Positions 18,120 to 21,216 of a stretch of DNA of 40,648 nucleotides are shown piece by piece. A model generated the notes under the pieces. That model saw only the letters and a program-made list of their open reading frames with translations, had not been told where the DNA came from and searched no databases. Source of the DNA: Pyrinomonadaceae bacterium (GTDB lineage: Bacteria > Acidobacteriota > Blastocatellia > Pyrinomonadales > Pyrinomonadaceae); assembly GCA_046714595.1 (NCBI GenBank), contig JBKKAS010000027.1, positions 1-40,648 on the forward strand, in the 5' to 3' direction. The position numbers and the translations under genes are program-made. Numbering within the stretch: position 1 is the stretch's first letter; the number at the start of each line of letters is the position of its first letter.

Positions 18120-20180
18120 CTAACGATCAACCGCGGCCTTGCCGAAATAGATTCGCAGCGAAGTATATGGTAGGTGGGCGTTGTAATTCTGTGGATTACC
18201 TAAGCGTTCCTTGTAATCGTAGTACTGGTATCCGAGATTCCAGTCGATATTACTCGTTAGTTTTATAGCGAGCCTAACCTCGGGCGATTGAAAGCGCATC
18301 GGGTACGAAGTGATTATGTCTTGCGCCCGCGTTGACACACGGCCACCCTGGCCGCGGTCGTCGTTTATCCGGTAACTCGCGAAAACCGAAACCCGTTTGA
18401 CCGGTCTGGCGTGGATATCGAAGAAGAAACTGCTGTCACGCACAAAGTACTGGCTGATCCCGGCAAGCCGGGCACCTGCGACGGGGACGATGATGTCCGT
18501 TACCGCGTTGAGGTGCTGGAAGGTATAGCCACCGCTGAGAGTGATCTCGGGTGCGGGTGTCCAGTCGACGCTGGCTGCAAAAGTTCGGCTGCGTGTTTCG
18601 GAGGTGAAGTTGACGGCTGGCATCTCGACCGAGCGCGACGGATTATCGTTACTGCGGCTTATGAACGACGCATTGATCGAAAACGTCTTTATATTCGCTC
18701 GCGTACGAAACCGGAAATTAGTGAAATCGTAATTCGCGAGCCGGGTGAAAACGTTATCCGCCTTTCCGTGTTCGGCATCGAAGAAGATCACCCAATTATT
18801 TACCGGCTTTGCCTTGAAGCCGGCGATAAGCCCGTGGGTTTGGTTGGCGAACTCTTCCGAGATGATGGTCGTGATCGGGGTCGGACTTACATTCCTGTTC
18901 GAACCCTCGATCTGCACTTTCCTATCGGTGAATCTGTAGCCGATGTTGAACCCGAACCGGTTGTTGACCTGGTAGTCCGCCTCGATCAAGTTCGTCGCTC
19001 TGCGATACGCCGTGACGCGGTGAGCGAGCGTGCTGGTCAACACAGTCGGCAGGCCAGTACCTGCAGCATTCCTTCGTCTTAGCTCTTCATAAAAAGCATT
19101 TCCGCCGCTGATATTGAACTGGTCGAACGTAAACGTGTTCGAGATCCTAAACTTCTCCGTCACCCGGAACGTCATGCCGAGATCGCCGCGCGTTTGCGGA
19201 CGTTTCGCCTGACCCGAGATCGCAAACAAGTCGAGGTCTACCTGGTTATTTGAATTATCCCGGCCCGTGATCCGTTCGCTGAGGTTAAATTCGGTCGACG
19301 TCTGCGAATGGATCAAACGTGCGGTGAAGTCCAGTTTGCTTGCGAATGTTCGCTGCGCGTGAAACTGCACAAAATTCGTTGTGCCCTCGATTGGATTTCG
19401 CCGCTCGAAAGTAAACAGCCTCGGATTGTTCGTCGGATTGTTTCCGAGATTAATGCCGTCGATGAAATAGCTCGTTCGCTCATTGAATTTACGAAAGCCG
19501 TAATTCAAACCCAAATTGAAGCCGTACGCTTTGCCCTCGACACCCGCGCGGAAATCGTCTGACCTGGAATCGACATTCGACAAGATGCCGAACTCGTCGC
19601 CGTATGCGCGCGTCGTAAAACCGCCGTCGCCGCCGGTTCGGTTGAAGGAGTAACCCAAGCGAAATCTCAACGATTCGCGTTCGGGGAAGATACTAAGATC
19701 AAAATCGCCAAAGCCGTGATCGGTATTGGCATTATGCTGATTCAGCGCGTGATTGGTGAGATTGTTGAAATACTTCACGCGACGGATATTCGAATCGAAC
19801 CGATAGAACCCTCTGCGCTCGAGATTGAATCGAAACATGCCGCTCGGGTCACCGCCCCAGCCGCTTGTTGTCACCAGGGCGGAATCAAAAAAGTTTCCAT
19901 GCCCTTCTTTGTTCTCGATCAGGAAGCTTGAATCGAACACGCGAAAGCCGGGCCGGTAGTTCAAATCGCTGCGGTACTTGTTGTCGCTGCCATTTACGTG
20001 CACGCCGCGCAAGCCGAGCTCGATCGTGGATGTGATCTCGGCTCCGCTTGATGACGTGCTGGTGCTAGATGGCGTCGGGGATGGAGTTGGTGATTGCGCC
20101 GACGACGTTTGCGGCAGCATCGTACAGATTACGAAGATCAAAGCCGTAAACAGAATGTATCTATCGCGAGCGCAATTCAT
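18120..20180 (-). CDS. Outer-membrane beta-barrel protein, MtrB/PioB-family-like (porin partner of the decahaem cytochrome)
   Basis: Start chosen at ATG 20180 ('MNCARDRYILFTALIFVICTMLPQTSSAQS', signal peptide). It is preceded by GGAG and lies 16 nt after the stop of the upstream decahaem gene; the track's 20231 start overlaps that gene. A PT/S-rich linker is followed by about 620 aa rich in Y/F/N/G/R/D with an alternating pattern. The N-terminal 'IELGLRGVHVNGSDNKYRSDLNYRPGF' resembles the start of the MtrB/PioB family. At 686 aa it is close in size to MtrB (about 700 aa). Confidence 0.65.
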   Translation of the reverse strand: MNCARDRYILFTALIFVICTMLPQTSSAQSPTPSPTPSSTSTSSSGAEITSTIELGLRGVHVNGSDNKYRSDLNYRPGFRVFDSSFLIENKEGHGNFFDSALVTTSGWGGDPSGMFRFNLERRGFYRFDSNIRRVKYFNNLTNHALNQHNANTDHGFGDFDLSIFPERESLRFRLGYSFNRTGGDGGFTTRAYGDEFGILSNVDSRSDDFRAGVEGKAYGFNLGLNYGFRKFNERTSYFIDGINLGNNPTNNPRLFTFERRNPIEGTTNFVQFHAQRTFASKLDFTARLIHSQTSTEFNLSERITGRDNSNNQVDLDLFAISGQAKRPQTRGDLGMTFRVTEKFRISNTFTFDQFNISGGNAFYEELRRRNAAGTGLPTVLTSTLAHRVTAYRRATNLIEADYQVNNRFGFNIGYRFTDRKVQIEGSNRNVSPTPITTIISEEFANQTHGLIAGFKAKPVNNWVIFFDAEHGKADNVFTRLANYDFTNFRFRTRANIKTFSINASFISRSNDNPSRSVEMPAVNFTSETRSRTFAASVDWTPAPEITLSGGYTFQHLNAVTDIIVPVAGARLAGISQYFVRDSSFFFDIHARPVKRVSVFASYRINDDRGQGGRVSTRAQDIITSYPMRFQSPEVRLAIKLTSNIDWNLGYQYYDYKERLGNPQNYNAHLPYTSLRIYFGKAAVDR

Positions 20181-20196
20181 TTCTTCTCCGTTCACA

Positions 20197-21216
20197 CTAT
20201 CTGAAAAATACCGGGCTAGAGTTCGACCCATGGATCGCGGAATGGCATATCGTGCAATTTTGATATCTCAGCACGGCTTGGTTGTGGAACGACGGCGTGT
20301 CGGGGGCAAACTGATCGGTAATGCTGCTGTGACACTCCAGGCATAGCTGTCGTACCGAGCTTCGCTTCAACATTTTCGGATTAGCGGAGCCATGCGGCGT
20401 GTGACAGGCAGAACATCCCTCGACCTTCAACGGGGCGTGTTCAAAAACGAATGGGCCCTGTTTGTTGCTGTGACATTTCACGCAGGATGCGTCGGCGCCG
20501 ACAGCGAGCTTGACCTGTTTCTGTTCGAAACCGCCATGCGGGTTATGGCAATCGCTGCAGTTCATCGCGCCTTCAAGGACTTTATGGTGAAACGGTTTGG
20601 TGAATTGGGCTTTCGTTTCCGTGTGACACGACATGCAGAGCTGGGGCTCGTTCGAACGGAGCATCGCGCGGGTCGCCTGGCCCGGCTTCTGCGCCGCAAC
20701 ATCACCGACAAACGTGATCGAACCCGCTTTCAACGTGCCGTGATCCGGCCCGTGCGCGGTATGGCACTCGGTACAGCCGACGTTGTTACGCCAATGCTCG
20801 CCGCGTCGAAAATTGTTGTGATTCTCTTTACCTGCGTGACATGCCAAACACGTCTCGGCCGCTGCCTTTGAATCGAGGCGTTTGAATGAAATTATTTTAG
20901 TCTTATCGCCGGCCGACTCGACGTGCGCTTTGCCGGGTCCGTGACACGATTCGCATCCGACGACCTTTCCTTTCCACGACGCGACCGTGTGCAGCTTGCC
21001 GTGTTTTGTTCCTTCAAAGCTTTTGAACTGGGGTTCGTGGCAGGCGGCGCAGGTCTCAGTGCCAACGTAGTTGTCGTCTAACGTTCCGGATGTTAGGGCG
21101 ATTTGGCCGGCGCTGTTTGCGCGTTCGGACACGGTGCCAAGGGCCAGCCATACCGCTAACGAAAGTGAAATGATCGAGAGCAAACCGAGCTTGATATGTT
21201 TGTTGGAAAACGGCAT
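20197..21216 (-). CDS. Periplasmic decahaem c-type cytochrome, MtrA/DmsE/PioA/MtoA family
   Basis: 339 aa with a signal peptide and exactly ten CXXCH: CAACH, CESCH, CLACH, CTECH, CMSCH, CSDCH, CVKCH, CSACH, CLECH, CTICH. The blocks '[10 protein letters not shown]', '[20 protein letters not shown]', 'QLCLECHS' and the C-terminal 'CHSAIHGSN' match my recollection of Shewanella MtrA (333 aa). Confidence 0.88.
   Translation of the reverse strand: [339 protein letters not shown]

Follow-up and report, generated by a model that had tools for sequence, protein, structure and literature searches.

A gene for a decahaem c-type cytochrome is followed directly by one for an outer-membrane β-barrel in a 40,648-nucleotide stretch of DNA from a Pyrinomonadaceae bacterium (contig JBKKAS010000027.1 of assembly GCA_046714595.1; the whole stretch that was analysed is called the window below). 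The cytochrome is assigned by its sequence to the MtrA/DmsE family, and the barrel is a true but remote relative of MtrB, at the level of the superfamily and below the thresholds of the curated families. We consider it probable that the pair is a trans-outer-membrane electron conduit of the MtrAB type, with the architecture of MtoAB and PioAB, and that it forms the outer end of a linked cytochrome pathway which is induced when oxygen is limiting. On balance we lean towards an outward flow of electrons through this pathway. Conduits of the MtrAB type are the best understood electron route across the Gram-negative outer membrane, and they serve as genome markers for the respiration or oxidation of iron and minerals.

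The decahaem cytochrome

A preliminary description of this DNA had singled out a secreted protein of 339 residues with exactly ten CXXCH motifs, and such a protein is indeed encoded (Table 1). The motifs lie at residues 56, 88, 123, 148, 194, 220, 245, 268, 292 and 321; the protein contains 20 cysteines in total and neither a CX3CH nor a CXXCK motif, while its single hydrophobic N-terminal segment, at residues 8-26, is the predicted signal. All ten CXXCH motifs are invariant across 40 aligned homologues, as are 11 histidines outside these motifs, a number that suffices for bis-His ligation of ten haems. The sequence blocks that the preliminary description had likened to MtrA align with those of the solved protein, 6r2q_A (EHAP...C..CH.PHGS, QLC..CH and CHS..HGSN). 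Against TIGR03508, the model of the DmsE/MtrA family, the cytochrome scores 238.3 bits and passes the cutoff of 192.2, whereas it reaches 49-54 bits against the NrfB models, below their cutoffs of 167-184. Similarly, the best solved relative among the PDB sequences is MtrA (6r2q_A; E 1.1e-32, 116.7 bits), whose entry in the PDB sequence file bears the name 'Cystathionine beta-synthase', seemingly in error, and NrfB follows with only 27.2 bits. On these scores the protein is placed in the MtrA/DmsE family and not with NrfB, the other grouping that had been envisaged. The model of GSU2203 (OmcK), NF041028, aligns with it end-to-end (residues 38-332) at 219.5 bits, below the cutoff of 325.

It could be argued that the pair is a DmsEF-like conduit, which would feed a dedicated extracellular terminal reductase and not metals. 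The best curated family of the cytochrome is named after DmsE, and NCBI lists its homologues as 'DmsE family decaheme c-type cytochrome [Pyrinomonadaceae bacterium]'. The TIGR03508 model, however, spans MtrA, MtrD and DmsE alike, and neither the window nor the conserved neighbours of the pair yielded a molybdoenzyme, a DmsAB-like gene or any further catalytic partner. We thus regard a DmsEF-like role as highly improbable.

The MtrB-like barrel

The TAG stop codon of the decahaem gene (20199-20197) is followed by 16 nt, TGTGAACGGAGAAGAA, which contain GGAG, and then by the ATG of the barrel gene at 20180; as had been described, this ATG opens the reading frame of a 686-residue protein with a signal peptide. 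An alternative open reading frame (ORF) of 703 residues begins at the ATG at 20231 and overlaps the decahaem gene, and it is this longer form, with its start inside the cytochrome gene, that a public protein collection lists. The start at 20180 is favoured because the homologues measure 664-692 residues and because the ATG at this position is preceded by GGAG.

The sole curated match of the barrel is to the GSU2204 family (NF041027) at 25.8 bits (E 4e-6), where the cutoff is 350, and this weak match was seen again in diverged relatives of the barrel. More than 1159 homologues were retrieved by a word-index search, all of them named 'hypothetical' and none with Pfam domains, while an exhaustive profile search extended the family to at least 1461 clusters at 50% identity. 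When ten distant relatives were compared with PF11854, one gave a match, which was sub-threshold at 18.5 bits.

The AlphaFold model of the barrel, built with 43 homologues, has a pLDDT of 85.6 and a pTM of 0.72. It is all-β from residue 47 to the C-terminus and has no plug domain; its strand number, which the preliminary description had proposed should be predicted, comes to 26-27 DSSP segments. In a Foldseek comparison with the PDB the top match of the model is MtrB (6r2q_B; E 1.7e-14, TM 0.65/0.69), and the next fold matches are 22-strand TonB-dependent receptors with TM values of 0.36-0.45. The identity of the protein as a TonB-dependent receptor or a generic porin was rejected on the lack of a plug, the TM of about 0.4 to the receptors and the lack of a Pfam match.

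Homology to MtrB was also apparent when alignments were compared with each other. A set of Shewanella MtrB proteins, all of which carry PF11854 and are named MtrB/PioB, was retrieved with a probe sequence, and 20 of them were aligned (A2). For the barrel, a shallow profile of close homologues (A1) and a deep profile of 47 family members with 22-52% identity (A4) were prepared. In hhalign the deep profile matched the 20 Shewanella MtrB proteins with a probability of 97.8% (E 1.1e-12) over 525 columns, residues 80-666 aligning on 83-694. The alignment is co-linear over nearly the full length, and a C-terminal (D/N)Y.AH motif is common to both families, at an identity between barrel and MtrB of about 12-16%. 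The preliminary description had allowed that the protein might prove to be an unrelated barrel with a small lumen; this is excluded by MtrB being the best fold match and by the near full-length homology of the deep profile. Although the curated models miss the barrel, both its fold and the deep profile match MtrB, and it is therefore a true but remote member of this group.

Outer-membrane architecture

A scan of a genome collection with the cytochrome yielded 80 loci, nearly all from Blastocatellia, Pyrinomonadaceae or Chloracidobacterium-like metagenome-assembled genomes (MAGs). Practically all related loci of sufficient length have the barrel gene as the immediate downstream neighbour of the decahaem gene. 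The scan also showed that Terriglobia hold distant relatives of the pair, among them Edaphobacter aggregans DSM 19364; mtrA/mtrB candidates were noted earlier in E. aggregans (PMC5900883).

A bona fide OmcA/MtrC decahaem (TIGR03507, 539 bits) is encoded in a Bryobacterales MAG (L081:25-2034), where its gene is directly upstream of that of an MtrA homologue (2055-2990). Full clusters of the mtrC-mtrA type therefore exist in other Acidobacteriota. A tblastn search with this OmcA/MtrC protein returned no match, either in the window or across the 81 remaining loci (1.26 Mb, with about 10 kb around each), which confirms the earlier statement that the window holds no lipoprotein decahaem of the MtrC/OmcA type. 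Moreover, none of the window cytochromes reaches TIGR03507, and a census of ORFs with at least two CXXCH in the window and the related loci revealed no further recurrent large cytochrome. Since no OmcA/MtrC was found in these sequences, the outer-membrane part has the architecture of MtoAB and PioAB. The view that the pair is a two-component module of the PioAB/MtoAB kind is thus upheld for the outer-membrane part, but not for the system as a whole, because the pair sits in a conserved and very probably co-regulated cluster with four more cytochromes. The genes of these four c-type cytochromes, 0.1-6 kb from the pair, had gone unmentioned in the preliminary description.

Linked cytochromes

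The features of the cluster are collected in Table 1.

Table 1. Genes and operator sites of the decahaem-barrel cluster, in window coordinates.
Feature	Position	Strand	Properties
MtrA/DmsE-family periplasmic decahaem c-type cytochrome	20197..21216	-	339 aa; Sec signal; no lipobox
MtrB-like outer-membrane β-barrel sheath	18120..20180	-	686 aa; signal peptide; ~26 strands; no plug
ImcH-like inner-membrane quinol oxidase	16408..18042	+	544 aa; 3 transmembrane segments; CX3CH and seven CXXCH
Secreted class-I monohaem c	15911..16255	+	114 aa; PF13442, 43 bits; one CAMCH; signal peptide
nona2, nonahaem of c7-type trihaem repeats (GSU1996-like)	14868..15731	+	nine CXXCH; TIGR04257, 51.8 bits
nona1, nonahaem, c7/c3-like	13700..14866	+	nine CXXCH; Pfam Cytochrome_C7, 53 bits; signal sequence
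FNR-like Crp-family regulator	21372..22106	-	cNMP-binding and HTH_Crp_2 domains; directly upstream of the decahaem gene, same strand
Crp/Fnr-family operator TGTGACGTATAACACA	21309..21324		108 nt upstream of the decahaem start codon
Crp/Fnr-family operator TGTGACGGCTGTCACA	13624..13639		perfect palindrome; 76 nt upstream of nona1

The transmembrane segments of the ImcH-like protein lie at residues 35-53, 65-83 and 118-136; a CGTQCH motif (CX3CH) at residue 150 precedes the seven CXXCH, and a NapC/NirT/NrfH-like domain is present. The hallmarks of ImcH are three N-terminal transmembrane segments, an adjoining atypical CX3CH, then 5-9 CXXCH, together with similarity to NapC/NirT (PMC6295460). All of these features, by which the 544-residue protein was compared with G. 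sulfurreducens ImcH (GSU3259), are found in it. The gene for the monohaem cytochrome occupies the position that MtoD has in Mto clusters. Its product matched no solved cytochrome among the PDB sequences, MtoD included, so that the likeness to MtoD is one of position. The best PDB match of nona2 is the c7-repeat dodecahaem GSU1996 (3OV0, E 2.4e-17), whereas nona1, the N-terminal segment of which is Arg-rich, has no relative among the PDB sequences.

The nonahaems bear on the question of what, if anything, caps the barrel. One of them, most likely nona2, might be exported to the surface and complete a three-component conduit, in which it would be a non-homologous analogue of MtrC or OmcB; such a linked partner had not been considered in the preliminary description. 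Consistent with this possibility, a lipobox-like signal followed by a Pro/Ser/Thr-rich tether occurs in 16 of 42 nona2 relatives, compared with none of 34 nona1 homologues and a lipobox-like motif in just one of 79 homologues of the decahaem. In addition, several relatives (L052, L056, L059, L062 and L071-L074) have nona1 and nona2 immediately after the barrel gene on the same strand, and in Shewanella soluble Fe(III), but not the insoluble form, is reduced by MtrAB on its own (PMC7198977). The nona2 of the window, however, lacks a clean lipobox, its cysteine sitting within the hydrophobic core and being followed by AYA-AE. The closest solved relative of nona2, GSU1996, is periplasmic, no secretion system is encoded nearby, and nona1 and nona2 are missing from L083 and other distant relatives of the pair. 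Because of the state of the lipobox in the window and the absence of both nonahaems from the distant relatives, we consider a three-component conduit unlikely.

Regulation

The product of the regulator gene upstream of the pair looks, on its sequence, like a sensor of oxygen limitation of the FNR type. Each of Cys13, Cys16, Cys25, Cys64 and Cys112 is retained by at least 38 of 43 homologues, and the N-terminal cysteines (C-X2-C-X8-C) together with the central Cys112 resemble the ligand set of the FNR iron-sulfur cluster, although the spacing differs from the C-X2-C-X5-C of E. coli FNR. Only two perfect or near-perfect TGTGA-N6-TCACA sites occur in the cluster, one upstream of the decahaem gene and the other upstream of nona1 (Table 1). 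Both are conserved: of 82 loci, 48 have the box 75-150 nt before the decahaem gene, and at similar distances it precedes nona1 in 23 of 36, against a background of 0.06 per 380 bp. Since the operator is shared by, and conserved before, both convergent transcription units, the two very probably form one regulon. The classical FNR box, TTGAT-N4-ATCAA, was rejected as a candidate operator, with 19 matches where 16 were expected and none in the two promoters. A scan for promoters and terminators around the cluster gave nothing informative.

Adjoining the FNR-like gene are genes for a sigma-54-dependent response regulator (22476-23966, + strand) and a hybrid histidine kinase with two PAS domains (23978-25918, + strand). 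This pair is syntenic in the closest relatives (L003-L013) and may provide a second regulatory input to the cluster.

Conserved neighbourhood and maturation genes

In most of the related loci of sufficient length the genes for the ImcH-like protein, the monohaem cytochrome, nona2 and nona1 are kept within about 10 kb of the pair, in at least two gene orders and orientations. Of 83 sources, 46 have the ImcH-like gene linked to the pair; the gene for the monohaem cytochrome is syntenic in most relatives, and that for the FNR-like regulator in most of the close ones. Many relatives also carry a CbcL/MtoC-like fusion, in which a c-type domain of 9-11 haems is joined to a cytochrome b of the FdnI/HydC type; the gene, which is absent from the window, sits between those for the barrel and the ImcH-like protein (L015:13370-15259, L054:14984-16960 and L083:7068-9080). 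In the distant relative L083 the genes for a Crp-family regulator, the decahaem, the barrel, two monohaem cytochromes, the CbcL-like fusion and the ImcH-like protein form an operon-like row.

In the window itself resB is absent, and the System II gene ccsA survives as a remnant at 13370-12662 (- strand), separated by a 330-bp gap from position 13700. The remaining pieces correspond to residues 1-98, a frameshifted 93-181, and 482-537, with about 300 internal residues deleted, whereas about 30 relatives have intact resB and ccsA adjoining nona1. The loss of these maturation genes may mean either that another maturation system is encoded elsewhere, or that assembly is faulty, or that decay of the cluster has set in. 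It could be argued that the cluster in this genome no longer has a function and is the relic of a system in decay; in favour of this are the deletion of resB and the reduction of ccsA to frameshifted fragments, both being genes that the relatives mentioned keep intact. The cytochrome, barrel and regulator genes, however, are full-length with every haem motif intact, and both operators are intact as well; in addition, a second maturation system elsewhere is plausible and the deletion is perhaps an artefact of assembly. A relic is, in our view, quite improbable.

Other genes were noted around the cluster. In a subclade of seven loci a secreted pentahaem cytochrome of 300-343 residues is encoded immediately 3' of the barrel gene (for example L054:13505-14407, L070:13271-14299, L048:13346-14377 and L061:13450-14361) and may serve those lineages as an alternative outer partner. 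The cluster of the window is flanked by genes for TPR and zinc-ribbon proteins (11943-12812, - strand, and 11004-11849, + strand, respectively); the TPR protein, which shows sub-threshold similarity of the CcmH/CycH type, recurs beside resB-ccsA or nona1 in relatives. Further away, a hybrid histidine kinase of 1684 residues (4887-9941, - strand), in which at least eight HAMP domains in tandem are combined with one GAF and three receiver domains, is preceded by a 271-residue HAMP protein (9963-10778, - strand) and followed by a GAF hybrid kinase (2581-4860, - strand), and the left end of the window holds a DUF1800/DUF1501 gene pair (21-950 and 968-2443, both + strand).

Proposed pathway and direction of electron flow

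In the pathway that we favour, the decahaem would be exported to the periplasm and, by homology with 6R2Q, would thread the lumen of the plug-less barrel of about 26 strands. A chain of bis-His haems roughly 80 Å long would then span the outer membrane and bring the last haem to the cell surface, with no MtrC/OmcA cap, as in MtoAB and PioAB. In Shewanella, MtrB is a 26-strand sheath around MtrA, and haem A10 is exposed when MtrC is lacking (PMC7198977). Judging from the parts list, the ImcH-like inner-membrane cytochrome would exchange electrons with the quinone pool, the monohaem cytochrome and the two c7-repeat nonahaems would bridge the periplasm, and the decahaem would pass the electrons through the barrel. 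We infer that the system would be induced when oxygen is scarce because the two units share the TGTGA-N6-TCACA operator and the FNR-like regulator has conserved cysteines; electrons could then be delivered outward to Fe(III) in soluble or chelated form, to humics or to minerals. The outward direction is the one we favour because ImcH homologues have so far been reported only from Fe(III) reducers (PMC6295460), because the periplasmic carriers are Geobacter-like and because the regulator looks like a sensor of low oxygen. The CbcL-like gene of the relatives likewise argues for outward flow.

The same hardware could, however, work inward. In an uptake system similar to Mto or Pio, the exposed end of the decahaem would oxidise extracellular Fe(II), or minerals or humics in reduced form, and the electrons would travel through the monohaem cytochrome and further cytochromes of the periplasm to reach either an oxidase or the quinone pool. 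Blastocatellia are mostly aerobes, the lack of MtrC/OmcA is shared with MtoAB and PioAB, and the cluster includes a class-I monohaem cytochrome that recalls MtoD (for the composition of Mto see PMC10654088). Furthermore, CymA and enzymes of the CbcL/MtoC type occur in reducers and oxidisers alike (PMC6295460). Against inward flow are the restriction of reported ImcH homologues to Fe(III) reducers, the low-potential c7-type repeats of the periplasmic carriers, the low-oxygen induction that the FNR-like regulator suggests, and the failure of the monohaem cytochrome to match MtoD or any other solved cytochrome. Inward flow is thus a serious rival, as MtrC-less conduits with a monohaem cytochrome are typical of oxidisers, even though we judge it unlikely.

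Several observations weigh against the conduit and the outward, oxygen-controlled pathway proposed here. At E<=0.01 the barrel matched no Pfam family, not even PF11854 (MtrB_PioB), nor did it match TIGR03509; its shallow profile reached a probability of only 34.8% in hhalign against MtrB and, when run against all PDB sequences, found no MtrB but only a chance match to a viral capsid; and the number of DSSP strand segments is not the exact 26. The AlphaFold model of the decahaem alone is poor (pLDDT 52.5). The conserved operator is of the CRP type and not the classical FNR box, and with the cluster-linked maturation genes decayed in the window, function would rest on another system elsewhere. 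To these may be added that the combination of an MtrC-less conduit and a class-I monohaem cytochrome is the one typical of the Fe(II) oxidisers that use Mto, and that the host belongs to an uncultured clade, a lineage of MAGs.

Taken as a whole, the picture would be of Blastocatellia/Pyrinomonadaceae, abundant soil Acidobacteria regarded as aerobes, possessing an FNR-controlled hybrid chain in which inner parts of the Geobacter type lead to an MtrC-less MtrAB conduit, the sheath of which belongs to an MtrB clade invisible to the hidden Markov models (HMMs) in use. In this complete form we advance the proposal tentatively, as a possibility a little short of an even one. If it is true, surveys of iron genes that rely on HMMs would undercount the capacity for extracellular electron transfer in soils: the barrel is 'hypothetical' everywhere and is missed by the MtrB/PioB models, and surveys that require a match to MtrB would therefore overlook the lineage. 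The authors of FeGenie noted no public mtrB model other than TIGR03509 (PMC7005843). The cytochrome, by contrast, is already correctly named by standard annotation. If the cluster is functional, widespread soil Acidobacteria could keep respiring once oxygen is gone, and a compact MtrC-less conduit would become available for comparative biochemistry; the concept of how a conduit operates is unchanged by it.

Comparison with known systems

MtrA/MtrB-like genes of Acidobacteria have been noted previously (PMC5900883; PMC10654088), while searches of the literature on Blastocatellia and Pyrinomonadaceae turned up no account of this cluster, just generic counts of multihaem proteins. Among the curated families, those of a Geobacter sulfurreducens pair provide the best-covering match of the cytochrome, GSU2203 (OmcK), and the only match of the barrel, GSU2204. 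Expression of both Geobacter genes rises with haematite or magnetite (PMC4070692), and RefSeq names the GSU2204 proteins as barrels of the MtrB/PioB family (PMC13188914). GSU2204, however, carries a CXXCH or selenocysteine feature that the window barrel does not have, and both scores are far below the cutoffs. The inner parts of the pathway also recall those of Geobacter (ImcH, CbcL and PpcA/GSU1996), the 544-residue protein having the hallmarks of ImcH, the fusion of the relatives being CbcL-like, and nona2 matching GSU1996. In Geobacter, by contrast, these parts feed porin-cytochrome complexes of the Pcc or Ext kind, with lipoprotein outer cytochromes, and not a conduit of the MtrAB type. 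A Pcc-type identity for the pair itself (an 8-haem cytochrome with a 20-strand porin) was ruled out by haem number, family and barrel size.

With MtrCAB of Shewanella (6R2Q) the window shares the order of cytochrome then barrel, a homologue of MtrA and a remote homologue of MtrB. It differs in lacking MtrC/OmcA and also the CXXC that Shewanella MtrB has near its N-terminus (Cys42/Cys45, without variation in the aligned set), the mature barrel of the window containing no cysteine. PioAB(C) of Rhodopseudomonas palustris TIE-1 is likewise a two-gene module of decahaem and barrel with no surface decahaem. PioA, however, has a haem-free N-terminal extension of about 270 residues (PMC10654088), which the window decahaem lacks, and PioC is a HiPIP, a protein type that was not found in the window.

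The cluster also resembles MtoAB-MtoD-CymA/MtoC of Sideroxydans lithotrophicus ES-1, Gallionella and Dechloromonas. Both systems comprise a decahaem homologue of MtrA and an MtrB-type barrel, with no MtrC, and both include a class-I monohaem cytochrome and a membrane quinol/quinone oxidoreductase of the NapC/NirT or CbcL type, the CbcL/MtoC-like gene being present in relatives of the window. In contrast with Mto, the enzyme here is ImcH-like, two c7-repeat nonahaems are added, the regulator is FNR-like, the barrel falls below the cutoffs of the MtrB/PioB HMMs, the host is acidobacterial and Fe(II) oxidation is not indicated. What is new in the cluster is modest, and consists of a large MtrB clade unseen by standard HMMs, the steady coupling of the pair to an ImcH-like enzyme and c7-repeat cytochromes, and the FNR-like regulon. 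The 2018 survey of Zhong and Shi reported no mtrAB or mtoAB next to imcH (PMC6295460); in the window an ImcH-like quinol oxidase is encoded together with an MtrAB-type conduit, a combination missing from that survey. The pair itself would work like MtoAB and PioAB, and is a real but largely expected type of system in a little-studied lineage.

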